From: a virus
Lineage: Duplodnaviria > Heunggongvirae > Uroviricota > Caudoviricetes
Virus record (IMG/VR): IMGVR_UViG_2778261532_000018
Coordinates: 1-18,787 of that record
Direction: 5' to 3' (one strand)
DNA: 18,787 nucleotides
Shown: positions 1-17,441 of the stretch, piece by piece
Layout: the number at the start of each line of letters is the position of its first letter
Numbering within the stretch: the stretch's first letter is position 1
Program-made: the position numbers and the translations under genes
Notes under the pieces: model-generated
What the model was told of the DNA's origin: nothing
The model's database searches: none
The model's input: only the letters and a program-made list of their open reading frames with translations

Positions 1-411
1 ATGGATCAGGTAGTCATTTTTAAACAAATATTTGATAAAGTTCGAAACGATTTAAACTATCAATGGTTTTATTCTGAGCTAAAACGTCACAATGTCTCAC
101 ATTACATTTACTATTTAGCCACAGAGAATGTTCATATTGTATTAAAAAATGATAATATAGTGTTATTAAAGGGCCTAAAAAACATTGTGTCTGTCAAATT
201 TTCAAAGGATAGGCATCTTATAGAAACGACCTCTAATAAGCTGAAATCCAGAGAGATCACATTTCAGGAATACAGAAGAAACCTTGCTAAAGCAGGAGTT
301 TTTCGGTGGGTTACAAATATCCACGAACAAAAAAGATATTACTATACCTTTGATAAATCATTACTCTTTACTGAAAACATACAGAGCACATCACAAATAT
401 TTCCACACTAA
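1..411 (+). CDS. DUF1398-family (YbcV-like) prophage protein; ORF starts exactly at window edge so may be 5' partial
   Basis: 136-aa ORF on the strand opposite the lysis cassette, the position lambda uses for bor; resembles E. coli DLP12 YbcV as I recall it. Confidence 0.4.
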
Positions 412-709
412 ACCATAACGTCCGGTTTCTTCTACCCCAGCACCGGACTGGCTGACATGAAGAGCAACCCCGCGTTCAGTTGACGTGTTAATAACCCGGT
501 GTACATCGTTTTTGATTATTCCCCCACACTTGTGCAGAAGGAGTTCCCCGTCGGGCTACGGTCATGGTTAATGCGGGAATACAGCGACGATACAGCGCAT
601 TATGTGTCAGGCTTGAATACCTTTATCCGTTAAAAGGGATATCAGTTAAGTTATCCTGCGTAGGGTATAAGCCATTATCAAGCCCACCCGTAGATAGGCT
701 TTGTAATGG

Positions 710-967
710 CTACTTCGCTTTTGCTTCCGCTCGCTTACGCCGGCGCTCTTCTTTCCTCTCGGCTTTTGCCATGTCCATGAATGCCTGCATGATCGAGTTC
801 CGCATCATGTAGCTAACAAAGTGATGATTGACACAGCCGTTGAGGCGCAGCTGCTCGCCAAACTCATCCACCGAGGCCAATGCTTCCATCATGCCCTTCT
901 CGCCTTTCATGAACTCTGAGAAGTCGCGCCCCGCTCTGGAGGCGCATTCAATGACACGATCAATCAT
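710..967 (-). CDS. Hypothetical protein, translationally coupled to upstream KilA-N gene (possible C-terminal part of a split antirepressor-like gene)
   Basis: 85-aa ORF whose ATG overlaps the stop of the 964-1461 ORF in an ATGA motif (964-967). Confidence 0.35.
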   Translation of the reverse strand: MIDRVIECASRAGRDFSEFMKGEKGMMEALASVDEFGEQLRLNGCVNHHFVSYMMRNSIMQAFMDMAKAERKEERRRKRAEAKAK

Positions 968-1461
968 CCCGGAAGCCCGGGGATCGTAATCTGCAGCTGG
1001 TTAGCCAGGGAGTTAATCTCAGCGACCAACACTGGCTTCGTATAGCGCCATGCTGCCAGCCCTTGTCCGCAGAAGCTCGCCATGTCTTTCTTCTGGTCAA
1101 ACTCATGACATTTCATGTTGAGCTGCGCACTTAAGCTGTTGCGATGCTGAAGTTCTCCGGTGAAGTAGTCATCGAGGACTTTATAGGCCGCGTACTTGAA
1201 CCCGGGGTTTAGCCATGCTGCATAATCATAAGCAACAAACTTCCCGCCATATGTTCCACCGTGTACACCGCGCTCAGTAAAAACCACAGATTCGTGGTTT
1301 TTCTCCAGCTCGGCTAAGAACTCTTTGGTCTGCTTGTTTCGCAGGTAGTAGTACGGAGATTCAGATTCACTTTTACCACTGGCTTTCCACATATCAGTGA
1401 GGCAGATCATGCCATCTTCACCGATACGAATTGGTTGATTGAAGAGGGTTAATGATTTCAT
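964..1461 (-). CDS. KilA-N domain-containing protein
   Basis: 165-aa ORF, N-terminus MKSLTLFNQPIRIGEDGMICLTDMWKASGK resembles KilA-N/antirepressor N-terminal domains; ATG at 1461 with AGGT upstream. Confidence 0.5.
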   Translation of the reverse strand: MKSLTLFNQPIRIGEDGMICLTDMWKASGKSESESPYYYLRNKQTKEFLAELEKNHESVVFTERGVHGGTYGGKFVAYDYAAWLNPGFKYAAYKVLDDYFTGELQHRNSLSAQLNMKCHEFDQKKDMASFCGQGLAAWRYTKPVLVAEINSLANQLQITIPGLPG

Positions 1462-1575
1462 AGCGTATACCTACTCTTTGAAATGAACCTTTGCCGCACA
1501 GGAAACCAGCCCACCGAGGCTCGCCAGCACTAACTGGTATCCTCAAAGGCCCATTCCAAAGGGGCAGGTTCGGTG

Positions 1576-1602
1576 TAAAAAAACATGCGTTGCGGTACGC
1601 AT
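1576..1602 (-). terminator. Intrinsic terminator (second of tandem pair downstream of Rz)
   Basis: Minus strand reads ATGCGT-ACCGCA-ACGCAT followed by GTTTTTTT. Confidence 0.6.
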
Positions 1603-1609
1603 TTATTGC

Positions 1610-1632
1610 AAAAAAGCCCCGCATCGCGAGGC
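1610..1632 (-). terminator. Intrinsic terminator (first of tandem pair downstream of Rz)
   Basis: Minus strand reads GCCTCGC-GAT-GCGGGGC followed by TTTTTT. Confidence 0.6.
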
Positions 1633-1664
1633 TCATTAAATGGACTTTGTGATTTGCAAAAAAA

Positions 1665-1919
1665 TTATTTCAGGCATTGCGTCCTGATGTACTCCTGCAT
1701 TTCGATAGTCGCGTTAGCATCAGCAAGCTCCTTTGTATATCTGGCGTCGAGTTCTGCTACATCATGTTGACGCTTCTGCATGTCAGCGATTGTGGATGTG
1801 GCCTTATCGCGCTGCTCTTTGTAGGTAATGGCGTTATCACGGTAATGATTAACAGCCCATGACAGGCAGACGATGATGCAGATAACCAGAGCGGAGATAA
1901 TCGCGGTTACTCTGCTCAT
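1665..1919 (-). CDS. Rz: Rz i-spanin, internally shortened (84 aa versus about 153 aa in lambda)
   Basis: N-terminal 65-70 aa match lambda Rz including the TM segment ([34 protein letters not shown]); C-terminus resembles the lambda Rz end; the central region is absent. ATGA overlap with R stop. Confidence 0.75.
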
Positions 1920-2392
1920 ACCTCAATCTCTCTGACCATTCCGCCAGCTTCTTTGAATTTTGCAATCAGGTTGTCAGCCTTATGCTCGAACTGACCATAA
2001 CCAGCCCCCGGCAGTGAAGCCCAGATATTACTGCAACGGTCGATTGCCTGACGAATATCACCGCGGTCAATCATCGGTAAAGCGCCACGCTCTTTAATCT
2101 GCTGCAATGCCACAGCATCCTGACTTTTGGGAGAGAAGTCTTTCAGGCCAAGCTGCTTGCGATAGGCATCCCACCAACGGGAAAGAAGTTGGTAACGTCC
2201 GGCGGCTGTTGATTTGAGTTTTGGGTTTAGCGTGACAAGTTTGCGAGGGTGATCGGAGTAATCAGTGAATAGCTCTCCTCCTACAATGACGTCATAACCA
2301 TGATTTCTGGTTTTCTGACGTCCGTTATCAGTTCCCTCTGACCACGCCAGCATATCGAGGAACGCCTTACGTTGATTATTGATTTCCACCAT
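1916..2392 (-). CDS. R: Endolysin R (lytic transglycosylase)
   Basis: 158-aa product essentially matches lambda R ([45 protein letters not shown]...); start overlaps the end of S as in lambda. Confidence 0.95.
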
Positions 2393-2699
2393 CTTCTACT
2401 CCGGCTTTTTTAGCAGCGAAGCGTTTGATAAGCGAACCAATCGAGTCAGTACCGATGTAGCCGATGAACACGCTCGTTATATAAGCGAGATTGCTACTTA
2501 GTCCGGCGAAGTCGAGAAGGTCACGAATGAACCAGGCGATAATGGCGCACATCGTTGCGTCGATTACTGTTTTTGTAAACGCACCGCCATTATATCTGCC
2601 GCGAAGGTACGCCATTGCAAACGCAAGGATTGCCCCGATGCCTTGTTCCTTTGCCGCGAGAATGGCGGCTAACAGGTCATGTTTTTCTGGCATCTTCAT
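2376..2699 (-). CDS. S: Holin S (class I, dual-start S107/S105)
   Basis: 107-aa product matches lambda S ([39 protein letters not shown]...); the ATGAAGATG dual start motif is present. Confidence 0.95.
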
Positions 2700-2941
2700 G
2701 TCTTACCCCCAATAAGGGGATTTGCTCTATTTAATTAGGAATAAGGTCGATTACTGATAGAACAAATCCAGGCTACTGTGTTTAGTAATCAGATTTGTTC
2801 GTGACCGATATGCACGGGCAAAACGGCATGAGGTTGTTAGCGCAGCCTCCTGCCACCTGCTTTCACGAAGGTCATATGTAGAAGGCCGCAGCATAACTAT
2901 CACTGATGAATTCAGGATAGCCAGTGGCTACGGCTTAGTTA

Positions 2942-3017
2942 TGGTGCTGGTTAACGGACTTGAACCGCTACCCATTCGCTTACAAGGCGACGGCTCTACC
3001 ATTGGAGCTAAACCAGC
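2942..3017 (-). tRNA. tRNA, predicted anticodon UGU (Thr)
   Basis: Manual cloverleaf on minus strand: acceptor GCTGGTT/AACCAGC 7/7 bp, D stem GCTC/GAGC, anticodon stem 4/5 bp with loop CTTGTAA, T arm AGCGG-TTCAAGT-CCGTT, discriminator A, encoded CCA. Confidence 0.6.
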
Positions 3018-3022
3018 ATATT

Positions 3023-3097
3023 TGGCGGGACAGCGTGGACTCGAACCACGATAAGAAGGTTAACAGCCTTCCGTAATGACCTTTATACGACTGACCC
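3023..3097 (-). tRNA. tRNA-like gene, predicted anticodon GUU (Asn-like); weaker fold
   Basis: Minus strand: anticodon arm GAAGG-CTGTTAA-CCTTC and T arm CGTGG-TTCGAGT-CCACG with loops identical to E. coli tRNA-Asn as I recall it; discriminator G, encoded CCA; one U-U mismatch each in acceptor and D stems; 4-nt variable loop. Confidence 0.45.
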
Positions 3098-3099
3098 AA

Positions 3100-3187
3100 A
3101 TAAAAAAGCCACCGTTGCAACTTAAGAGTCACTAACGGCAGCTTATGCGAATAGTGTTGCTCATTTGCTCAATGATGTCAACACGTT
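3100..3187 (-). promoter_or_regulatory. Candidate late promoter / Q-utilisation region with leader hairpin
   Basis: Immediately downstream of the Q stop; TTGACA on minus strand at 3176-3181, no convincing -10; hairpin CCGTT...AACGG (3112-3137) followed by a T-run on the minus strand. Assignment is by position. Confidence 0.25.
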
Positions 3188-3676
3188 CTATGCTACATGT
3201 TTAATTTTCTCTACACGTTTCCGGTTTTTAAACGCACTATCCAGAACCGGGCAAATCATAAACAACGAGGCATTAAGGATTTCGTCAACTTCCCGTCGAC
3301 AGGTTGCGAGCGATGGTTTTTGAATGCGCCCGCCGCCACGGCATAACATCTTGCGAGGTCTTGCGACGCGATGATAGTAAGATGCAATGGCGTGCTTGGA
3401 AGAACCATGAGCGTAGTAGCTGAGGAGGATGCCAAAGGCTTTCTTGTCAATGCACATGACGGAATCGACGACCTGAGAAATCAACATTCCATCATCATCA
3501 TTGCACATTGGCCTTGTCATAACTCTTCCCGGCTCTACGCTCTCCATGAACTTCGCTATTACGCTGCTCATACGCTTTTCCAGACGACCTGAATAAACCC
3601 ATGCGCCCCACAGTTCAAGCCAGCCATTCAGCCACTCATGCTGTTCTTTGGTGAGGTTTAGTTCTCTTATGCCCAC
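3188..3676 (-). CDS. Q: Late-gene antiterminator Q (non-lambda Q family, phage 82/21/933W-like)
   Basis: 162-aa ORF directly upstream of the late promoter/tRNA/S region; unrelated to lambda Q but resembles Q proteins of other lambdoid phages as I recall them. Confidence 0.7.
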
Positions 3677-4338
3677 GCGCCTTCTCCCTGTACCTGAATC
3701 AATGTGAGATTTCCGCAGAACACTGCGCCGGTATCGATATACATCTGGTTGGCAAATTTGAGTGGTTTCACTGCTGGCGTATGACCAAAGATGAACGTGT
3801 CCGCGCCTTTAATTTCTTTCACGATCCCGTCTTGTGAGTTGCTGATTCGTTTGCGGTTCCAGATTACCTGCTGATGATCAACTGGCTTTCCAAACTCGTA
3901 TTCGTCAAAGGGATAATCGGCGTGGCAGATAACATATTTTTTATCTTTGCTCACCAGTTCGATGATTAACGGAAGTTCTTCTGCTTTATGGGCAAGAGCT
4001 TTAGCCAGAATTTCTTTGTCGTAATCGAGATTAAAGAACCAGCCACCGCCATTAAGCAGCCAGTGATTGACGTTTCCACGCTCTGATAAGCCATCAATCA
4101 TCATGTGCTCATGGTTTCCACGTACAGCTCTGAACCAGGGGAATGTGATTAATTCCAGGCATTCAACGTTCTCTGCACCACGATCAACCAAATCGCCCAC
4201 CGAGATAAGCAGGTCTTTTTTGTTGTCGAATCCAATCGTATCCAGTTTGTTCATCAGGTTCGTGTAGCATCCGTGCAGATCGCCAACTACCCAAATATTT
4301 CGGTATTTGCTGCCATCAATTCTTTCGTAGATATTCAT
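3667..4338 (-). CDS. ninI: Ser/Thr protein phosphatase NinI (lambda PPase, calcineurin-like)
   Basis: 223-aa product with GDLHG and GNHE metallophosphatase motifs; near-identical to the lambda phosphatase as I recall; ATGA overlap with ninG stop. Confidence 0.9.
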
Positions 4339-4937
4339 GCAGCCTCACTTCTGCTGTTTCGCAGTTTTTTAAGTTTCTGTTGATACTCCGCCTTGATGGC
4401 CCTGCACTCTTCGACAGTCCAGCGATGGCGGTTATGGTTTGATTCGATTTCGTCTACTGCTTCCTGCCCGATGCGGTTAATCAGTTCGACGCGATACGGA
4501 ACGAGATTTCCGCTTTTATGTTGGTTGCACACCACGCATTGCTTGTGAATATTGCGTTCATCAAATCGGAGTTGAGGCGCCGCAGCAGTTGTCCGGTAAT
4601 GCCCGGCATCCCACTGAGCAGACGTGAGCGTTCCGCACGAGATACATGGTAAGTCGCGGTCTCTTTCTCTGATGAAGGCGTTTACGGCTTGTTGGGCTTG
4701 TTTAATCCAGTAACTGCGGGGCTTTAAGGCGAGTTTTCGAATCTTAAGTTTATCTTTCTGTCTCTGATCCTCTCGTCGTCGTTTCTTCTCTGCTGCTTTT
4801 TCCGCTTTTTCGCGTTCTTTGCTTCGTCGTTCGAGTGCTATCTTTGTTCCACAAATCTCATTACACCAATATTGATTTTGATATTTTGGTATAAACCATT
4901 CATTGCAACATTTACATTTCCTTCGATAGATTCGCAT
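4335..4937 (-). CDS. ninG: NinG (Rap) recombination protein with recoded N-terminus
   Basis: ATG at 4937 preceded by AGGAG; product [15 protein letters not shown]... becomes lambda-NinG-like from [18 protein letters not shown] onward; the first ~30 codons are AT-rich and divergent. Confidence 0.8.
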
Positions 4938-5478
4938 AAGTGCTCCTTTCGTTGCCGGAAAAATCACCGTAATACTTATCTCGGGCTTCTTCAGCAACTA
5001 GTACCGCTAACTCCAGATCATCAAAGCATCCGAAGTGTTTACTCTTGCCATGGAAACCTAGCCTAACATTCCATTTTTTCTGTCGTTTGTGCCAAGTAAC
5101 TCCTCTGCAACCTGATTTGCTATTCTTTCGGATCCTTATATTTCTTGAATTTTCTATTGGCAGGCATTCTCTTAAATTTTCTGGCCTATTGTCGGTCCTA
5201 ATTCCATTAACGTGGTCAATTTGACCAGCAGGCCAACGATTATGAGTTATGTAAAAAACTAAGACGTGAGTTTTATATCTACGCCCATCAATCATGATCA
5301 TTGAATAACCGTTGGAATCAAAAGTTCCAGCAACACTATTTAATGCTATCCTTCCCTGAGTGGGAACTTTCCATCTAAATACACCGGTAGATTTATCGAA
5401 ACTTAGTAACTCAAATATCCTTTTAACAGTTAAATCTTCTCTTTTACGGTTACATCGTCTTCGCGCTGGTTTAGCCAT
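4912..5478 (-). CDS. HNH homing endonuclease (HNH_3 plus AP2-like DNA-binding domain) fused to the native ninG start
   Basis: 188-aa ORF; first 9 codons MAKPARRRC sit at the normal ninF/ninG junction; then HNH motif ([16 protein letters not shown]) and AP2-like segment ([27 protein letters not shown]); AT-rich. Confidence 0.75.
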
Positions 5479-5647
5479 CGTCTTCTTCCTCGTACATTGA
5501 GCTATTCGGATCGCTCATCAGTTCTGCGCAGCAATCGGAGCACACGTGAACTTCCAGCACATGCAGCTTCTGACCGCAGTTAGCGCACGTTAAAGCTCGC
5601 TCGACGCTTTCTTTCTGGTATTGAAGGGATTGGGATTGGCTAAGCAT
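5471..5647 (-). CDS. ninF: NinF
   Basis: Product from [36 protein letters not shown]... matches lambda NinF as I recall it; start chosen at the internal ATG 5647. Confidence 0.8.
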   Translation of the reverse strand: MLSQSQSLQYQKESVERALTCANCGQKLHVLEVHVCSDCCAELMSDPNSSMYEEEDDG

Positions 5648-6047
5648 GGATTTCACCATTAAAAAGTCGCTTGTAAGCATCAATGTCTCGTTTTGCTTCA
5701 CCGAGCTTTCGTCTTAATTCCATGTTTTCTGATTCAAGCTTTTCCATGTCTTGTTGGTATCGATCGCGGTGTTCTTTCCATGCTTTTTGATACGCCTTCA
5801 TGTATGTCGTATTGGCCTTTCTCTTTGCCTGACGAACCGCATGGTGGTTTTTCACAAACCAGTCAGGGTCGTTAAATGCTGCTCTGGCGCAGGTATACCA
5901 ATAATTTGTTGCCTCCCTGTTTAGCCAATAAATACTGATAAATGGCAACCGGATAGACACCATTTTTCGTTGTGACTCTTTCTCGCCAAACATGTGTCCT
6001 TTTTTGATGCTAAGGCCAAATCCAGGTTGAATTAAAAGCATTGTCAT
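5640..6047 (-). CDS. Hypothetical nin-region protein (slot between ninE and ninF, where P22-like phages carry ninX)
   Basis: 135-aa ORF whose ATG overlaps the ninE stop (ATGA); charged, probably coiled-coil C-terminus; no lambda counterpart recalled. Confidence 0.5.
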
Positions 6048-6220
6048 TTCCTCGCACGTTCTCTAAGCCACCGGATATCCCACAGGTGAGCCGTGTAGTT
6101 GAAGGTTTTTACGTCAGATTCTTTTGGGATTGGCTTGCGTTTATTTCTGGAGCGTTTCGTTGGAAGGTATTTGCAGTTTTCGCAGATGATGTCGGTGATA
6201 CTTCGTCGCTGTCGTCTCAT
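6044..6220 (-). CDS. ninE: NinE
   Basis: Manually translated 58-aa ORF, below the 60-aa cutoff of the ORF track: [58 protein letters not shown]; ATGA overlaps on both sides. Confidence 0.7.
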
Positions 6221-7062
6221 GACGCATCCTCAAAATTAAATCCAAGCTGACATGAAAATGCTTCACATGATTCAGAACACGAACCTGAATCATACTGTCG
6301 CATTGATGTCATTCTTGAGGCTAACTCATCTCTTGATATATCACTAAACAAGGCAATCAGTGATTTAAGTGTATTATTCCCTCGATACATAACCGGTTCC
6401 TTTCCTGTTTTTATTTCTGTATCAAGGATGTTGATAAATGCATCTGCAAGTTCTGGCTCATCCATGGCTGCCAGCGCCACCTTTTGCATACTTTTTTTTA
6501 TGCAGAAAACACAATTACCAAGATGCTCCTGTATGCCAAGATCAAACTTCTGCTCACTCCACCAATCAAGCACATCCTGTTTTTCAAAATCGCTTATATC
6601 AGCCAGGTACCGAAAACCATTAGCCCTTTTAAGCCTGTTTGGTTCATCTGTGCGAATGCCAAGCCATGTGATGTAATTTCCTTTCCCAAACTTTTCCTGA
6701 CAATATTTGGTGAATGGAACAGACTTCATTCTGTCGGTACAGAACGCACCGCCGATATATGGATGTCCGTATTTATTCAACATCCTTTTCCACGGTATAA
6801 GATCTGGACCAATATCATTGACACCTATCTCTTCATAACTACTGGCCTTCCCCATTTCTGGATTAGGTATTACACGAAGGCAATGTAAGTCTATTTTCCA
6901 GTTACTGACGATATTTCGGATGAACTCATATGTTTTAGGGTGCTCTGCCCCTGTATCCATGAAAACGTAATGCACGTCTTCACCTGCCTGTCGCTTTTGC
7001 TCCATTAGCCAGAGCAAATATGCTGACGTCCTGCCACCTGAGAAACTAACGACATTTATCAT
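6217..7062 (-). CDS. ninC: NinC (PAPS-reductase-like protein)
   Basis: Product from [24 protein letters not shown]... matches lambda NinC as I recall it; start at internal ATG 7062 overlapping the methyltransferase stop, not the extended track start 7152. Confidence 0.85.
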
Positions 7063-7586
7063 GCAGCCCTCCTGACACCCTGCCCGATCGCCATCAATGC
7101 CGCTTTGGATACGGTAGTAAACATCCGTCGAGGACTGATGAACGGTCGCCAAATCAGCAGCATGGAGCCTTTGCTGTTTCCCTTCTTCTCCAGCCCCGTC
7201 GATGGTTCGATAAAATTAATCCGTCCATCAGTGATAATACGAACTTCGTCAACACTCTCCAGAGCCTTGCTGAACCATCCGACAGACATATCCTCTGGCA
7301 CAAGCATCACTACCGTCTGTCGTTGTTGTATGCACTGCTCAGCGGCTTTTTCCACCCACGGCCTGATATTGCTGTACGGTGGGTTATTCCAGATTGCACC
7401 GTGGCTTACCCACTCAGAATTGAGCGCGTCGTCGGCCTCAGTTAGCCAGTGAGCACACAGAGCATTTTTGTCGCTCGCTGCCGAATCCAGCCAGAATCCA
7501 AACTCAATATCCAGTGCATCAAAAAGCCAAAGCGGCGTTTGCCAGCAGTCCTTGTCGTGTGCTGGCGTATTTGATTTGATAGTCAT
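7059..7586 (-). CDS. Phage DNA N6-adenine methyltransferase (Dam-like)
   Basis: 176-aa product from MTIKSNTPAHDKDCWQTPLWLFDALD... with NPPY catalytic motif (IWNNPPYSN); ATGA overlaps with ninB stop and ninC start. Confidence 0.7.
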   Translation of the reverse strand: MTIKSNTPAHDKDCWQTPLWLFDALDIEFGFWLDSAASDKNALCAHWLTEADDALNSEWVSHGAIWNNPPYSNIRPWVEKAAEQCIQQRQTVVMLVPEDMSVGWFSKALESVDEVRIITDGRINFIEPSTGLEKKGNSKGSMLLIWRPFISPRRMFTTVSKAALMAIGQGVRRAA

Positions 7587-8023
7587 GCAGCCCGATCTCC
7601 CCATCTCGCTTTCCACTCCAGAGCCAGTCTCGCTTCGTCTGACCACTTAACGCCACGCTCTGTACCGAATGCCTGTATAAGCTCTAATAGCTCCGCAAAT
7701 TCGCCTACACGCATCCTGCTGGTTGACTGGCCTATTACCACAAAGCCATTCCCGGCAAGGTTAGGAACAACATCCTGCTGCTTTAATGCTGCGGTAAACA
7801 CACACTTCCAGCTTTCTGCATCCAGCCAGCGACCATGCCATTCAACCTGACGAGAGACGTCACCAAGGCAAGCCCAAAGCTTTCGGTTTTGGTCTAAGCT
7901 GCGGTTGCGTTCCTGAATGGTTACTACGATTGGTTTGGTTGGGTCTGGAAGAATTTGCTGTACTGCGTGAATAGCGTTTTGCTGATGTGCTGGAGATCGA
8001 ATTTCAAAGGTTAGTTTTTTCAT
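7583..8023 (-). CDS. ninB: NinB recombination protein
   Basis: Product from MKKLTFEIRSPAHQQNAIHAVQQILPDPTKPIVVTIQERNRSLDQNRKLWACLGDVSRQVEWHGRWL... matches lambda NinB as I recall it. Confidence 0.9.
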   Translation of the reverse strand: MKKLTFEIRSPAHQQNAIHAVQQILPDPTKPIVVTIQERNRSLDQNRKLWACLGDVSRQVEWHGRWLDAESWKCVFTAALKQQDVVPNLAGNGFVVIGQSTSRMRVGEFAELLELIQAFGTERGVKWSDEARLALEWKARWGDRAA

Positions 8024-8037
8024 GACTTCCCTCTCCC

Positions 8038-8071
8038 CCAAATAAAAAGGCCTGCGATTACCAGCAGGCCT
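8038..8071 (-). terminator. Intrinsic terminator between ren and ninB (tR2-like position)
   Basis: Minus strand: AGGCCTGC-TGGTAATC-GCAGGCCT followed by TTTTTATTT. Confidence 0.65.
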
Positions 8072-8096
8072 GTTATTAGCTCAGTGATGTAGATGG

Positions 8097-8387
8097 TCAT
8101 CTTTTAACTCCATATACCGCCAATACCCGTTTCATCGCGGCACTCTGGCGACACTCCTTAAAAATCAGGTTCGTGCTCATCTTTCCTTCCCGTTCTTCCC
8201 TGGTAGCAAACCGGTAATACACCGTTCGCCAGACCTTACCTTCGATAACCAGAAGACCTGCCCGTGCCATTTTAGCCGCGGCCTGATTTATGCTGGTTAC
8301 TGTTGCGCCTGTTAGCGCGGCAACGTCCGGCGCACAGAAGCTATTATGCGTCCCCAGGTAATGAATAATTGCCTCTTTGCCCGTCAT
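8097..8387 (-). CDS. ren: Ren
   Basis: 96-aa product MTGKEAIIHYLGTHNSFCAPDVAALTGATVTSINQAAAKMARAG... matches lambda Ren as I recall it. Confidence 0.9.
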   Translation of the reverse strand: MTGKEAIIHYLGTHNSFCAPDVAALTGATVTSINQAAAKMARAGLLVIEGKVWRTVYYRFATREEREGKMSTNLIFKECRQSAAMKRVLAVYGVKR

Positions 8388-9085
8388 ACACTTGCTCCTT
8401 TCAGTCCGAACTTAGCTTTGAGTTCTGCGATCTTCGCCAGAGCCTGTGCACGATTTAGAGGTCTACCGCCCATGACAGGAAGTTGTTTTACTGGTTCAGG
8501 GATCGCCTCACCACGGTTAATTCTCGCAGTCATATGGACAAGCTCATCTGCGGCCTTACGGCGTAATTCCGCATCAGTAAGCGCATTGGCCCGCATGTTC
8601 TGATACAGGTTGGTAACCAGCCAGTAGTGCGCGTTTGATTTCCACGGATAAGACTCCGCATCCGGATACAGGCCTCGCTTCCGGCAATACTCGTAAACCA
8701 TATCAACCAGCTCGCTGACGTTTGGCAGTCCGGCGATAACGGATGCTTCTTCCCGGCACCATGCAACAAACTGCCCGGGTGATGGCAGAAATGGTCGATT
8801 CTGCCGACGGGCTACGCGCATTCCTGCGTTAACCTGTTCCATTGTGGTGATCCCGTTTTCCCGGAAAGCCAGCACCCACTGGCGGCGGATTTCGTTCAGT
8901 TCGTTCTGGTCCCGGTTAGCCAGGCTCGCCGGGAAAGTTGCCAGTAACTGGCTGAACACACCATTGATGATCTGCGCTACCTGTTGTACCTGCGGCTTTT
9001 CGTCGTACTGTTCCGGCATGTTGTTGGCGATCCGACGCATCTGCTCACGGTCAAAGTTAACCATCTGTGCGGCGATGTTTTTCAT
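8384..9085 (-). CDS. P: Replication protein P (DnaB helicase loader)
   Basis: 233-aa product MKNIAAQMVNFDREQMRRIANNMPEQYDEKPQVQQVAQIING... matches lambda P as I recall it. Confidence 0.95.
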   Translation of the reverse strand: MKNIAAQMVNFDREQMRRIANNMPEQYDEKPQVQQVAQIINGVFSQLLATFPASLANRDQNELNEIRRQWVLAFRENGITTMEQVNAGMRVARRQNRPFLPSPGQFVAWCREEASVIAGLPNVSELVDMVYEYCRKRGLYPDAESYPWKSNAHYWLVTNLYQNMRANALTDAELRRKAADELVHMTARINRGEAIPEPVKQLPVMGGRPLNRAQALAKIAELKAKFGLKGASV

Positions 9086-9981
9086 AGATCCACCCCGTAA
9101 ATCCAGTCTGTGTTTGTCAGGTCGAGTTTTGGTTTGCTGGCTATCACGCCTGCCTGTTGCTTGTTACGGTTGATTTCGAGTTGGGTCCACTTATCGCGGA
9201 GTTTGGCCGGGCTCAGCACGTTACCGGACCAGAAGTTGTCCTGGCAGGCCCAGCGGAAAAGCACACACATATCGCGGTGGTTACGTCCGTCACGTTCACG
9301 CATCAGGCGGATATCGTTAGCCCACCCAGCAAAATTCGGTTTTCTGGCTGATGGCGCGATGGTCTTCACCATGTCAAACATCCACTCTGCGGCGGTCAGG
9401 TCTTCTGCTGTTCCCCACTTGCTGCCGCTCTGAATTGCAGCATCCGGTTTAACCACAGAAAGATCGTTTTCTGGCTGGTCAGAGGATTCGCCAGAATTCT
9501 CTGACGAATAATCTTTTCTTTTTTCTTTTGTATTAGTGTCTTTTGTGTTCCCCTGTTTTGAGGGATAGCAATCCCCCAATTTGAGGGATGTTTTATCCCT
9601 CGTTTTAGGGGGTTTTCCCTCGTTTTGAGGGATACACCATTCTGAGATGTTTTTATTTGGTCCAAACATGCCGCCTTGCTGCTTGATAATATTCATTCTG
9701 ACGAGTTCTAACTTGGCTTCATTGCACCGTTTAACAGGTAACTTTGTAATCTCGCTAAGTTGAGAATCGGTGATTCTGTCCATTGGTTTATTCCACCCAT
9801 AGGTTTTACGCAGAATGGCAAGCAGCACTTTAAACTGTCGCTTGGTCAGATCTGCGCCTGAATAAGCCTCAAGCAGCATATTTGATAGTCTGGCGTAACC
9901 ATCATCGAGATCTGCCACATTACGCTCCTGTCCGGCAAAGTTACCTCGGCCGAAGTTGAGTATTTTTGCTGTATTTGTCAT
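9082..9981 (-). CDS. O: Replication initiator O
   Basis: 299-aa product MTNTAKILNFGRGNFAGQERNVADLDDGYARLSNMLLEAYSGADLTKRQFK... matches lambda O; contains the ori iterons. Confidence 0.95.
   Translation of the reverse strand: MTNTAKILNFGRGNFAGQERNVADLDDGYARLSNMLLEAYSGADLTKRQFKVLLAILRKTYGWNKPMDRITDSQLSEITKLPVKRCNEAKLELVRMNIIKQQGGMFGPNKNISEWCIPQNEGKPPKTRDKTSLKLGDCYPSKQGNTKDTNTKEKRKDYSSENSGESSDQPENDLSVVKPDAAIQSGSKWGTAEDLTAAEWMFDMVKTIAPSARKPNFAGWANDIRLMRERDGRNHRDMCVLFRWACQDNFWSGNVLSPAKLRDKWTQLEINRNKQQAGVIASKPKLDLTNTDWIYGVDL
9495..9635. repeat. ori-lambda: four ~18-bp iterons (9550-9634) plus adjacent AT-rich region (about 9495-9545) inside O
   Basis: Four copies of a TCCCTC-N6-GAGGGA type inverted motif at ~22-bp spacing, flanked by an A/T-rich stretch. 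Confidence 0.85.
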
Positions 9982-9984
9982 AAT
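9956..9984 (+). promoter_or_regulatory. pO promoter for OOP RNA
   Basis: -35 TTGAGT (9956-9961), 17-bp spacer, -10 CATAAT (9979-9984). Confidence 0.6.
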
Positions 9985-9991
9985 GACTCCT

Positions 9992-10068
9992 GTTGATAGA
10001 TCCAGTAATGACCTCAGAATTCCATCTGGATTTGTTCAGAACGCTCGGTTGCCGCCGGGCGTTTTTTA
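9992..10068 (+). ncRNA. oop: OOP antisense RNA ending in the lambda t0 terminator
   Basis: Sequence from GTTGATAGATCCAGTAATGACC to GCCGCCGGGCGTTTTTT matches the lambda oop/t0 region as I recall it; overlaps the 3' end of cII on the opposite strand. Confidence 0.8.
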
Positions 10069-10310
10069 TTGGTGAGTCCATCAAGCGCATACTTAAAAGC
10101 CCTGCTAATCGGACTGATGTCTGATGCCATTCCGAAAGCACACAAGACCGAAGCAATAAATCTCCAGTCCGTTCTGCTTATCTTCGATTCATGACAGCCA
10201 ATCATCTTTGCCAAACCGCGCTGTGTAAGCGTTGACAGGTTGATGAGTAAATCTGTTTCTGCGCGATCAACGTCGCGCTGTGATAGTTTGCTGTAACTTG
10301 TTTGTTCCAT
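10014..10310 (-). CDS. cII: CII-type lysogeny activator (P22 c1-like N-terminal part, lambda CII-like C-terminus)
   Basis: 98-aa product; the C-terminal TNKKRPAATERSEQIQMEF matches lambda CII, the N-terminal two thirds does not. Confidence 0.8.
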   Translation of the reverse strand: MEQTSYSKLSQRDVDRAETDLLINLSTLTQRGLAKMIGCHESKISRTDWRFIASVLCAFGMASDISPISRAFKYALDGLTNKKRPAATERSEQIQMEF

Positions 10311-10324
10311 TTCTTACTATTTCC

Positions 10325-10366
10325 ATAGGTAAATAATCACTAATACTCATCTTTCGATGAGTGATT
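10325..10366 (-). terminator. Candidate tR1 hairpin between nutR and cII
   Basis: Minus strand AATCACTCATC-GAAA-GATGAGT...AGTGATT nested hairpin followed by a moderately T-rich tail. Confidence 0.4.
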
Positions 10367-10374
10367 AATTAGTT

Positions 10375-10410
10375 ACCGCGTTGTCGGCGGTGCAGATTGA
10401 TAAAGAGCGG
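10375..10410 (-). promoter_or_regulatory. nutR (boxA plus P22-type boxB)
   Basis: Minus strand boxA CGCTCTTTA (10401-10409), then boxB ACCGCCGACAACGCGGT (10375-10391), directly after the cro stop. Confidence 0.65.
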
Positions 10411-10419
10411 ATCCGCTTA

Positions 10420-10635
10420 TTAAGCGGTTTTGTGTTCCGGTGGGAACACGTCATCAAGACTGACTTTTGCGCCTAACTTGTTTAGGCACGCAACAAGAGC
10501 ACGGCATGTTTTAAGGTCTGGGAAGCGACGACCAGATTCCCAATGTCCGATAGCTCCCTGTGTGCATCCAACCGCCTTAGCAAGTGTTGTTTGAGAGATA
10601 TTCAGTGACTCTCGATATTTTCGTAGGTTGCTCAT
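10420..10635 (-). CDS. cro: Cro-like repressor (HTH), heterologous immunity
   Basis: 71-aa product MSNLRKYRESLNISQTTLAKAVGCTQGAIGHWESGRR... with HTH; ATG at 10635 preceded by GGAGGG; divergent from cI across an operator region. Confidence 0.8.
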   Translation of the reverse strand: MSNLRKYRESLNISQTTLAKAVGCTQGAIGHWESGRRFPDLKTCRALVACLNKLGAKVSLDDVFPPEHKTA

Positions 10636-10752
10636 ATGCCCTCCATAGTAACCATGAAACAATAATACGATATGTACTTTTGGAATGCAAACAAAAAATA
10701 CATCTTGTGCATGGATGGTTTTAGTACAGAGCGTAATAATAAGGATATGAAA
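10636..10752. promoter_or_regulatory. OR region with divergent PR and PRM and operator-like 13-bp motifs
   Basis: PR on minus strand: -35 TTGCAT (10685-10690), 17-bp spacer, -10 TATTAT (10662-10667). Motif copies ATACGATATGTAC (10665-10677) and GTACAGAGCGTAA (10724-10736) overlap the PR -10 and a putative PRM -10 (TAATAA 10734-10739). Confidence 0.6.
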
Positions 10753-11406
10753 ATGAAATGGTATGAACTGGCTAGATCCAGAATGAAAGAACTCGGCATA
10801 ACTCAAGAGAAGTTAGCTGAAGAGCTTGGTATGACGCAGGGTGGAATTGGTCACTGGTTGCGCGGATCTCGTCATCCATCTCTTGACGAGATTGGTATGG
10901 TGTTTAAATACCTTGGTATTGATAACGTCTCGTTCAACCACGACGGTACATTTTCACCTGTTGGCGAATACTCATCTGCCCCCGTTAAAAAACAATATGA
11001 GTACCCTGTTTTTTCTCATGTTCAGGCCGGGATGTTCTCGCCTGAGATTAGAACCTTTACCAAAGGTGATGCGGAGAGATGGGTAAGCACAACCAAAAAA
11101 GCCAGTGATTCTGCATTCTGGCTTGAGGTTGAAGGCAACTCAATGACAGCGCCGGCAGGATTGAAACCAAGTTTTCCTGATGGAATGTTAATCTTGGTTG
11201 ACCCTGAACAACCTGTTGATCCTGGTGATTTCTGTATCGCTAGACTTGGTGGTGATGAATTCACATTCAAAAAACTGATCAAAGATAGTGGGCAAGTGTT
11301 TTTGCAACCACTCAACCCGCAGTTTCCAATCATCCCATGCAATGAGAACTGCAACATTGTAGGCAAGGTTATCGCCAGTCAATGGCCTGAAGAGACGTTT
11401 GGGTGA
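10753..11406 (+). CDS. cI: CI repressor (heterologous HTH N-domain fused to lambda-type S24 autocleavage C-domain)
   Basis: C-terminal ~130 aa from [17 protein letters not shown]... to [12 protein letters not shown] match lambda CI as I recall it; N-terminus is different. Start 10753 preferred for SD spacing (alternative ATG 10747; track ORF starts at 10672). Confidence 0.9.
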
Positions 11407-11472
11407 TATATGTGAAATGCATATATTGATATAAATGCAGCAATATCAAATAGTTAAAAGGTTATATTTTTA

Positions 11473-11853
11473 ATGAATGATCTTGATAAGAAAAAGTACG
11501 ACCAAGTTATTGATTCTGTGAACTTCGCCCTTAGATCGTTGTCAGAGTTATTCGAAGCCCATGGAATGCATGGGATGTATGATCTAACGAATCCAAGCCT
11601 TGATGAGCTAAAATTAGTGTTTACAAGGATGAAAAACGGTGTTGACTCTATTGCTCAAAGCTTTGAGCACATGGTAGAGACAGCAAAGGATATGGATGCC
11701 GCAAGTGCAAGCATAAATGTTATGAACATCAAACAAGGATTGATGTATGCTGAATCACTATTGCTTGCTGTAGAGAAATTAGACTATGATAAATGTGTGG
11801 AAGCAAATACGCAGATAAAAACCCACGATCTTCCACCAACCCAATGGCCTTAA
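11473..11853 (+). CDS. Hypothetical protein in the rexAB slot downstream of cI (unrecognised, AT-rich)
   Basis: 126-aa ORF, no hydrophobic segment, acidic; AAAAGG 11 nt upstream of ATG; codon usage markedly more AT-rich than neighbouring lambda-type genes. Confidence 0.6.
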   Translation: MNDLDKKKYDQVIDSVNFALRSLSELFEAHGMHGMYDLTNPSLDELKLVFTRMKNGVDSIAQSFEHMVETAKDMDAASASINVMNIKQGLMYAESLLLAVEKLDYDKCVEANTQIKTHDLPPTQWP

Positions 11854-11922
11854 TAGTAAATCAAGATTTCATATAGTCTATTTGAACTAGGCTAGTACCA
11901 TAAAATAAACCGAGGAAACGCA

Positions 11923-12472: not shown

Positions 12473-12781
12473 ATGACGGTAATCGTGTACGGGAAATCAA
12501 CATTCGCAGGAAATGCCAAAACTCGCCGTCATGAGCGGCGCAGAAAGCTGGCCATCGAGCGTGATTCCATCTGCAACATCATCGATTCGATCTTCGGAAC
12601 AGACAGCGAGGAACCTGTTCAGAAAGACACGAGAAAGCGTTTAAGCCTTTCTGAAAAAGCAATATCACTCGGCAACATTCGTAACCAAAATACCGACGAA
12701 TGCAGTGGAAGTATTTGCCTGCCAAACGTAGCCATTTACGCGGCAGGCTACCGGAAATCAAAACAACTGACGGCGAGGTAA
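12473..12781 (+). CDS. N: Antiterminator N (P22 gene 24-like, arginine-rich motif)
   Basis: Product from MTVIVYGKSTFAGNAKTRRHERRRKLAIERD... ; arginine-rich motif matches P22 N as I recall it; GAGGAA SD; start is the internal ATG of the track ORF. Confidence 0.85.
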   Translation: MTVIVYGKSTFAGNAKTRRHERRRKLAIERDSICNIIDSIFGTDSEEPVQKDTRKRLSLSEKAISLGNIRNQNTDECSGSICLPNVAIYAAGYRKSKQLTAR

Positions 12782-12783
12782 TT

Positions 12784-13200
12784 ATGGATTTAAGTAAATT
12801 AGAAAGCTCCTTGGAAGCATCAGTAAAAAATTTTATATCAGTAATTGATGAAAAAACTGAAGATATTAAGAAAGCAACTATTGCAGAACTTATTCAAACA
12901 AGAGCCAGTACATTTGATCATCTTCCTGATGATGTCCGGTCAGCGGCAATTCATTTATATGTTACAGCGCTAAGCAATATTGAACCCCCAATTGATGAAG
13001 AATCAAGAGATATTCAGAAAAAACGGTTTGAGATGTTAGCCAGCAACATTATCGCTGGTTTCACACAACTCTTAACAAAAGAGCCTGCCAGTGAGGCTGT
13101 TCGCCAGCAGGCTCAGGTAATGATTAATCAGGCAGAAACTATTTCACGTGAGCGAAAAGCATTTGATAAATCGGTTTCTGAACTTCCAACACCTCAATAG
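12784..13200 (+). CDS. Hypothetical protein immediately downstream of N (unrecognised, AT-rich)
   Basis: 138-aa product from MDLSKLESSLEASVKNFISVIDEKTEDIKK...; ATG 2 nt after the N stop with GAGGT upstream; no hydrophobic segment. Confidence 0.55.
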   Translation: MDLSKLESSLEASVKNFISVIDEKTEDIKKATIAELIQTRASTFDHLPDDVRSAAIHLYVTALSNIEPPIDEESRDIQKKRFEMLASNIIAGFTQLLTKEPASEAVRQQAQVMINQAETISRERKAFDKSVSELPTPQ

Positions 13201-16761: not shown

Positions 16762-17441
16762 GCGAAATTAACTCTCAGGCACTGCGGGCCAAGGCAGAAA
16801 AAGCAACGTGTGGTGAGTGGTCGCTCGAATATGGAGAGAGCCGATTTGATGGTGATGATGCGCTAATTCATCGTGAAGTTGCTGGATATATTCCTATTTG
16901 CAGAATTGAAGGAGCGCATCCAGAAAGCGGTTTCGATGAAGATTTCCAAATGGAACAGCAGGCCAATGCTGAATTCATCGCCGCAGCCAATCCCGCTACC
17001 GTCTTGGCGCTGCTGGATGAGCTGGAAAGAAACCAGCAATACATCAAACGCCGCGACCAGGAGAACGAGGATATTGCGCTTACGGTTGGGAAGCTGAGAG
17101 TTGAGCTTGAGGAGACAAAATCAAAACTCAACGAGCAGCGTGAGTATTACGAAGGCGTTATCTCGGATGGGAGTAAGCGCATTGCTGAACTGGAAAGCAA
17201 CGAAGTCCATGAAGACGGAAATCAGTTTCTTGTTGTTCGCCACCCCGGGAAATCTCCGGTAATCAAGCACTGCACTGGTGACCTGGAAGAGTTTCTGCGG
17301 AAGTTAATCGAACAAGACCCGTTAGTAACTATCGACATCATTACGCATCGCTATTACGGGATTGGCGGTCAATGGGTTCAGGATGCAGTTGAGTATCTGC
17401 ATATGATGTCTGACGCTGGCATTCGCATCAAAGGAGAGTGA
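16758..17441 (+). CDS. Ea22-family protein (lambda Ea22-like, divergent N-terminal region)
   Basis: 227-aa product; MSEINSQALRAKAEKA start and C-terminal ~150 aa (QQYIKRRDQENEDIALTVGKLRVELEE...HMMSDAGIRIKGE) match lambda Ea22 as I recall it. Confidence 0.75.
   Translation: MSEINSQALRAKAEKATCGEWSLEYGESRFDGDDALIHREVAGYIPICRIEGAHPESGFDEDFQMEQQANAEFIAAANPATVLALLDELERNQQYIKRRDQENEDIALTVGKLRVELEETKSKLNEQREYYEGVISDGSKRIAELESNEVHEDGNQFLVVRHPGKSPVIKHCTGDLEEFLRKLIEQDPLVTIDIITHRYYGIGGQWVQDAVEYLHMMSDAGIRIKGE

Follow-up and report, generated by a model that had tools for sequence, protein, structure and literature searches.

The DNA analysed here, called the window throughout, is a stretch of 18,787 nucleotides from a virus of the class Caudoviricetes (IMG/VR record IMGVR_UViG_2778261532_000018). 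It belongs to a lambdoid prophage of E. coli and carries a lambda-type lysis cassette, encoded on the minus strand in the order Q, tRNA genes, S, R, a shortened Rz gene (referred to below as Rz∆) and terminator. The antiterminator gene Q (3188–3676, minus strand, 162 amino acids) is recognised by its match to PF06530 (E = 1e-24), and its homologue in the prophage of strain PEC41 is annotated as an ‘antiterminator Q family protein’; its product would drive expression of the lysis cassette. Between Q and S lies a pair of tRNA genes (2942–3097), tRNA-Thr(TGT) at 2942–3017 and tRNA-Asn(GTT) at 3023–3097, both on the minus strand, followed by ~240 nt without a cargo gene before S is reached. This is the slot in which Stx-type lambdoid phages carry tRNAs and their toxin genes. 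The holin/antiholin gene S (2376–2699, minus strand, 107 amino acids) has the dual start MKM and encodes a protein 99% identical to lambda S, with R105G as the single change; Pfam family PF05106 is recorded for S in related loci. The endolysin gene R (1916–2392, minus strand) encodes a full-length lambda-type transglycosylase of 158 amino acids that contains no internal stops and is 97% identical to lambda R, differing by G63A, S141N, T152M and D157E. The earlier note on this DNA had described both genes as intact, and so they are, not only in the window but in all 12 deletion-bearing copies compared (the window and 11 others).

The last gene of the cassette, in the position expected for the spanin family, is Rz∆ (1665–1919, minus strand), an internally deleted i-spanin gene of 84 codons with an ATG start and a TAA stop. 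The start of Rz∆ overlaps the stop of R by 4 nt and S overlaps R by 17 nt, as in lambda and in ECP1. Beyond Rz∆ the terminator region has been retained (1585–1636, minus strand): the annotation of phage HK544, alignment and a terminator scan identify a GC-rich hairpin with a T-run, to which the HK544 record gives the annotation of rho-independent terminator, and past it another terminator-like hairpin (1602–1585). Past the late terminator come a KilA-N/ORF11CD3 gene of 165 codons (964–1461, minus strand, assigned by Pfam hits) and an 85-codon ORF that overlaps it by 4 nt (710–967, minus strand; phrog_875, unknown function), and the same pair is found 3′ of the full-length Rz/Rz1 genes in ECP1. 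We considered whether the two might be a single frameshifted antirepressor gene and rejected the idea, as ECP1 has both with the same 4-nt overlap. The slot past the terminator is a swap site: in HK544 it is occupied by a KilA-N gene of that phage's own, and in the prophage of PEC41 by a Rha-family gene. Further along are ~290 nt (420–710) with no credible ORF and then, on the plus strand, a DUF1398 gene (1–411).

The nature of the change in Rz is clear from comparison with its relatives. A megablast search with window positions 1400–2420 against 50,697 phage records matched 329 of them, and the best of these matches were all in two pieces, spanning ~183 bp more than the query. Three-way DNA alignment of the window with ECP1 and HK544 resolves the difference into a single in-frame gap of exactly 183 bp, with near-identical flanks on both sides that extend past the native stop and take in the terminator. 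The junction lies between positions 1700 and 1699 on the minus strand, as placed by the alignment, the BLAST coordinates and the flank sequences, and reads ...CTATCGAAA/TGCAGGAG...; a 30-mer across it is CGCGACTATCGAAATGCAGGAGTACATCAG. The DNA absent from the window corresponds to ECP1 (L001) 2222–2404. The two break points share no base (...CGAAA/GTCTCC...CTACC/TGCAGG... in the parent) and show no microhomology, and a repeat search of the parent sequence turned up nothing more than a weak inverted repeat in their vicinity, direct repeats at the ends being absent (I3: L001 2228–2237 and 2414–2423, 9/10 complementary). The loss of the 183 bp looks like a one-off event of illegitimate recombination.

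At the protein level, residues 1–73 of the window Rz are the N-terminus of the parent and residues 75–84 are the parent's last 10 residues, with M74 encoded by a hybrid codon derived from parent S74 and L135. The earlier note had reported an Rz shortened internally to 84 amino acids with matching N- and C-terminal parts, a description that the alignment with the full-length ECP1 and HK544 genes bears out; it had also allowed that the ORF might have been mis-delimited, which is excluded by the fact that the window ORF ends at the native stop. Its figure of ~70 missing amino acids holds against the 153-amino acid lambda Rz, relative to which 69 are absent, but against the true parent allele, of 145 amino acids, the loss is exactly 61 codons (residues 74–134). 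Lambda itself, taken as the reference in that note, is not the parent: this is the 145-amino acid Rz and 61-amino acid Rz1 pair found in ECP1, HK544 and HK022/HK97-like relatives. This type of pair is also matched in HK022, mEp and IME10 phages.

What has been lost can be read against the domain map of lambda Rz, in which coiled-coil 1 (residues 27–87) is followed by a hinge, L2 (89–120, including C99), and by coiled-coil 2 (121–150), with essential helices at approximately 60–90 and 130–140 (Cahill et al., PMC5295617). The missing part aligns with lambda residues 81–143 and takes in the last portion of coiled-coil 1, the hinge, cysteine included, and most of coiled-coil 2. Rz∆ retains the N-terminal transmembrane anchor, with 38 of its first 39 residues (and 24 of 24 in the membrane domain) the same as in lambda Rz, whose anchor has a type II, N-in/C-out topology (PMC5295617). 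Also retained are 49 residues at the start of the periplasmic domain and 10 at the C-terminal end, the latter identical to the parent and including a cysteine that aligns with lambda C152. This leaves a periplasmic domain of ~60 residues, as against ~121 in the parent, so that Rz∆ is without the two hinge-linked coiled-coils that characterise the family and that, in combination with Rz1, are of sufficient length to span the periplasm. Profile searches reflect this: ECP1 Rz aligns with PF03245 along the full length of the profile (positions 9–125 of 126; E = 8e-36), whereas the window protein covers positions 7–52 only, and the window protein matches the ‘Rz-like spanin’ family phrog_13 only at profile positions 1–80 of 154. 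The C-terminal end of Rz, which contacts Rz1, has been kept in Rz∆ but is a tip without a partner, Rz1 being absent.

Rz1 is embedded in Rz in the +1 frame, and for this reason the one lesion destroys both spanin subunits. In ECP1, Rz1 is a 61-amino acid protein with the lipobox VSAC and a match to PF06085 (E = 2e-20); the parent sequence begins MLTRLSKVSVLMFLLGVSAC-KSPPP.... Translation of the window and comparison with ECP1 Rz1 reveal a 16-amino acid remnant (1670–1720, minus strand), consisting of the start and seven native codons (MLTRLSK), then nine out-of-frame codons and a stop. Codons 8–61 have been deleted, and with them the signal peptide's hydrophobic core, the lipobox cysteine and the whole of the mature domain. 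The earlier statement that Rz1 appears to be absent holds, although the start codon and the first seven codons remain. An o-spanin ORF in the +1 frame, with signal peptide, lipobox cysteine and proline-rich mature domain, is not present at this locus.

To look for such an ORF elsewhere, every start in all six frames was scanned for the elements of a lipoprotein signal (charged N-region, hydrophobic core, lipobox), in a procedure that recovered the ECP1 Rz1 control. In the window the scan yielded no credible o-spanin, the sole match (16868–17047) being antisense to an early gene, and this upholds the earlier claim that no frame contains a lipobox or proline-rich ORF. The 10-kb flanks of four related deletion-bearing loci (L004, L005, L010 and L011) yielded short ORFs, mostly antisense, and no plausible o-spanin. 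The second spanin that the earlier note wished to see sought elsewhere has therefore been looked for, and none was found in the window or in 10 kb downstream in these related prophages.

These results bear on the idea that the short Rz is functional after all, or that the spanin function is provided by a separate o-spanin, a unimolecular spanin or a cationic peptide like phiKT gp28. Spanin-independent solutions do have precedents: some 13–15% of phages of Gram-negative hosts are without a recognisable spanin, and phiKT is described as using a cationic peptide instead (PMC6139136; bioRxiv 10.1101/515445). The morphogenesis half of the prophage also falls outside the window. For Rz∆ itself, however, the strict length requirement that applies to lambda Rz (PMC5295617) speaks against function, and the alignment reveals an ordinary gene pair that has suffered a deletion, the start of Rz1 still being in place, rather than a cassette of different architecture. 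On the coding strand, a lipobox ORF was found neither in the window nor in any of the four 10-kb flanks. All the genes shared by the carriers (S, R, the KilA-N gene and the 85-codon ORF) also sit beside full-length Rz/Rz1 in ECP1, and on this basis we rejected the proposal that a replacement outer-membrane disruptor is to be found among them; in particular, the KilA-N gene, part of the near-identical ~1-kb core that accompanies the deletion, is no spanin substitute. Taken together, we regard a functional short Rz or a substitute for it as very unlikely.

With both subunits destroyed and Q, S and R intact, the phenotype to be predicted is therefore that of a spanin-null cassette, in which holin and endolysin would act but the outer-membrane step would fail; this agrees with the earlier note's suggestion of a possible spanin defect. 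In lambda, lysis is blocked if either spanin subunit is defective, and the cells persist as spheres enclosed by the outer membrane (PMC5295617, citing Berry et al. 2012; PMC6139136). We infer loss of function here by analogy with lambda, whose protein is 78% identical. As the sequences show, illegitimate recombination removed 183 bp from the DNA shared by Rz and Rz1, whereupon Rz1 lost its signal-peptide core, its lipidated cysteine and its entire mature domain and Rz was left with its membrane anchor and a shortened periplasmic domain. On induction, Q would switch on the late operon, S105 would make holes in the inner membrane and the wall would be degraded by R, but the outer membrane would be neither fused nor otherwise disrupted. 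The expected outcome, as with lambda mutants null for Rz or Rz1, is fragile spheres from which phage would be released only under shear, in detergent or at low concentrations of divalent cations; the cassette should behave like an RzRz1 double null of lambda. Shaking of cultures without added divalent cations masks the requirement for spanins. That requirement was long overlooked under standard laboratory culture (PMC6139136).

The allele is rare. The exact 84-amino acid protein occurs on 36 contigs from independent assemblies (NCBI, ENA and Logan) and is listed in 75 blocks of the gene-position index. For comparison, one single full-length sequence (P0016) occurs on 162 contigs, and the cluster of mostly full-length Rz proteins to which it belongs has 7,837 members. 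The junction is present in one IMG/VR prophage contig, and L013 (GCA_002536695.1) matches window positions 1–11919 at 100% identity; GCA_907166325.1 and GCA_030006335.1 are further carriers. By contrast, a 40-nt junction sequence was absent from 5,426 complete E. coli genomes and from the 50,697 phage records, and the 30-nt junction pattern from the GTDB species representatives and from JGI metagenome contigs. Of the 5,426 complete genomes, 1,988 match a 201-nt Rz query, and the best of these matches are all in two pieces, as is expected of full-length Rz. A different lesion in the same Rz family was seen in P0008 (WP_308788786.1), an N-terminally truncated protein encoded on a 5.1-Mb E. coli contig that retains only the C-terminal 74 residues; the 183-bp allele is thus not the sole spanin lesion among prophages of E. 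coli.

Ten of the genomic contexts in which the deletion is found were read. Between them they contain five repressor/cro (immunity) types, three Q types (PF06530 proteins of 162 and 172 amino acids and a PF03589 protein of 207) and two head modules, one lambda-like (Nu1-A-W-B-C-D-E-FI) and the other of a DUF1441/GpA/ClpP-capsid type. In at least four of the contexts the deletion-bearing cassette adjoins head genes encoding proteins of 181 (Nu1), 641 (A), 68 (W), 533 (B), 439 (C), 110 (D) and 341 (E) amino acids, the lengths that these proteins have in lambda. The flanks thus vary, but the deletion does not: all copies have the same junction and a single Rz haplotype, the Rz∆ DNA being identical in 10 of the 11 other copies, with a 1-nt difference in L005. 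Across 10 loci a core of approximately 990–1937 (window coordinates) is near-identical, with 0–3 differences, and beyond it divergence rises to 2–3%, with at least four different break patterns in R. From the shared junction, the single haplotype, the near-identical core and the varied flanks we conclude, at the level of sequence comparison, that the deletion arose once and then spread with its ~1-kb core into mosaic prophages by homologous recombination.

Several features of these loci are recorded here as observations. Nearly the only variation in the core among the deletion-bearing loci is found at window positions 1562–1566, where SNPs lie in and beside the T-run of the second terminator-like hairpin. 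Two of the R changes, S141N and T152M (codons 141 and 152; window 1937–1972, minus strand), are absent from both lambda and ECP1; they lie less than 60 nt from the start of Rz and are found in nine of the 12 deletion-bearing copies, the other three having recombinant R ends. At the other end, L004 and L011 diverge from the 420–710 interval onward into a different head module, marking that interval as a recombination boundary.

The same comparison disposes of the suggestion that the deletion is a sequencing or assembly artefact, or that it is made recurrently or in a programmed fashion through repeats, either of which we consider extremely improbable. An artefact would be hard to square with the occurrence of one and the same junction in independent assemblies from four sources (NCBI, ENA, Logan and IMG/VR). 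Recurrence could appeal to the weak inverted repeat near the end points, yet there is neither direct repeat nor microhomology at the break points to mediate the deletion and all copies are on one Rz haplotype. In our assessment, the cassette very probably derives from an ordinary S-R-Rz/Rz1 cassette of the ECP1/HK544 type that was rendered spanin-null by a single deletion and spread by recombination.

Whether the allele has spread because of its effect or in spite of it is a separate matter. A spanin-less cassette might be maintained by selection, with release gated by external bile, shear, detergent or low Mg2+; the deletion would then create an environment-gated burst of phage or of cell contents, or reduce collateral lysis. 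Were this so, it would explain the transfer of the lesion into at least five immunity backgrounds beside intact S, R and head genes, and the variety of immunity, Q and head types associated with the allele, the integrity of S and R in every copy and the presence in several contexts of complete-looking lambda-like head genes are in keeping with it. The rarity of the allele (36 contigs against 162 for the single full-length sequence P0016) and its absence from the complete-genome, phage and JGI sets point the other way. Moreover, the very low divergence of the core indicates that the allele is young, so that S and R could be intact without having been kept so by selection. One carrier, at the least, is plainly in decay: in L007 (GCA_958336295.1, 10001–16202), the same deletion is found at a Qin-like site where an 85-amino acid Nu1 fragment abuts a fragment of the tail-tip gene J, followed by tail-fibre assembly genes, a Pin-like invertase and host genes of the ynaE/ydfJ type. 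We therefore think it unlikely that selection maintains the lesion. Rarity, youth and absence from isolated phages argue instead for a tolerated, mildly deleterious lesion; at the same time, the allele is not obviously confined to dead prophages, and the natural cost of spanin loss may be small.

The closest complete genome to the window is that of PEC41 (L003, NZ_CM168023.1, 1395739–1445021), whose prophage is 99% identical to the window in the early region. This prophage lies at the tRNA-Arg gene argW, with intS at one end and torI at the other, and is defective: a fragment of a DNA-packaging gene abuts the tail-fibre genes, nearly all of the morphogenesis genes having gone. Its Rz is full length, and a Rha gene replaces the KilA-N gene.

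Outside the late region, the window contains a number of other genes that merit description. In the nin region, a PAPS-reductase-domain gene of 311 codons (6217–7152, minus strand; PF01507, phrog_33262) adjoins a Dam-like methyltransferase gene (7059–7646, minus strand). The former, which is found in only some of the related prophages, gives moderate PADLOC matches to SspD (3e-14), BrxP (5e-8) and DndC and could be a DNA-modification or anti-defence accessory gene. In the left part of the immunity region, directly 3′ of the repressor gene, is an ORF of 126 codons (11473–11853, plus strand) whose only match is phrog_16322, a family of unknown function; its slot is that in which lambda carries rexAB. 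A second ORF, of 166 codons (12700–13200, plus strand), follows N and has no match in Pfam, PHROGs or PADLOC. Both of these ORFs are candidate exclusion or moron genes expressed in the lysogen.

On its own, a loss-of-function lesion in a well-understood system carries little weight, prophage gene decay being routine, and the biology here is ordinary decay of this kind that involves no new mechanism. The twist is that one and the same defective allele has come to be shared by several prophages with no other obvious damage. As a natural allele in which a single event has removed both subunits, it illustrates the fragility of the embedded-gene architecture. Lysogens that carry it also offer ready material for testing how far spanins are needed under conditions other than shaken culture, such as those of the gut, in which bile might stand in for the spanin. 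There is in addition a point of annotation: at present the 84-amino acid product goes under the names ‘lysis protein’ and ‘putative phage endopeptidase’, and these hide the absence of a spanin from the cassette.

How, then, does the locus compare with known systems? Judged on its sequence, it is by descent a remnant of the lambda-family embedded two-component spanin, and by the defining features of that family it contains no functional member. Its direct parent is the Rz/Rz1 pair of ECP1 and HK544, with which the DNA is 96–97% identical on both sides of the gap. The start, the stop, the overlap with R, the downstream terminator and, beyond it, the KilA-N gene are all shared, and the 83 retained residues are 98% identical; the window differs in being without the 183 bp and hence without Rz residues 74–134 and Rz1 residues 8–61. 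The likeness to lambda extends to gene order and overlaps, to S (99%) and R (97%), to 38 of the first 39 residues of Rz and to the C-terminal QC motif. Lambda Rz, however, has 153 amino acids, with a 7-amino acid insert at positions 40–46, the lambda Rz1 gene is intact and the gene downstream is that for Bor in lambda rather than a KilA-N gene.

In the cryptic Qin prophage of E. coli K-12, as in the window, spanin genes are found in a non-inducible or decaying lambdoid prophage. Qin, however, has a full embedded pair that belongs to a different Rz family and is undeleted, with rzpQ (165 amino acids, DUF2514 family) containing rzoQ (84 amino acids). We considered whether rzpQ might itself be an 84-amino acid truncated Rz and rejected this: rzpQ is the 165-amino acid protein, of another family, and the 84-amino acid protein is rzoQ. 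Phage phiKT, with its disruptin gp28, is similar in having a lysis cassette without a recognisable functional spanin gene (PMC6139136; bioRxiv 10.1101/515445). In phages of the phiKT type a spanin was never recognisable or an alternative disruptor is present, whereas the remnant in the window, for which no substitute was found, speaks of recent loss. The closest functional equivalents are expected, by analogy, to be the Rz-am and Rz1-am null mutants of lambda, in which holin and endolysin do their work but the cells become spherical with the outer membrane intact (Berry et al. 2012, cited in PMC5295617). Those alleles are engineered nonsense mutations that affect one subunit each; in the window, a single natural deletion has affected both.
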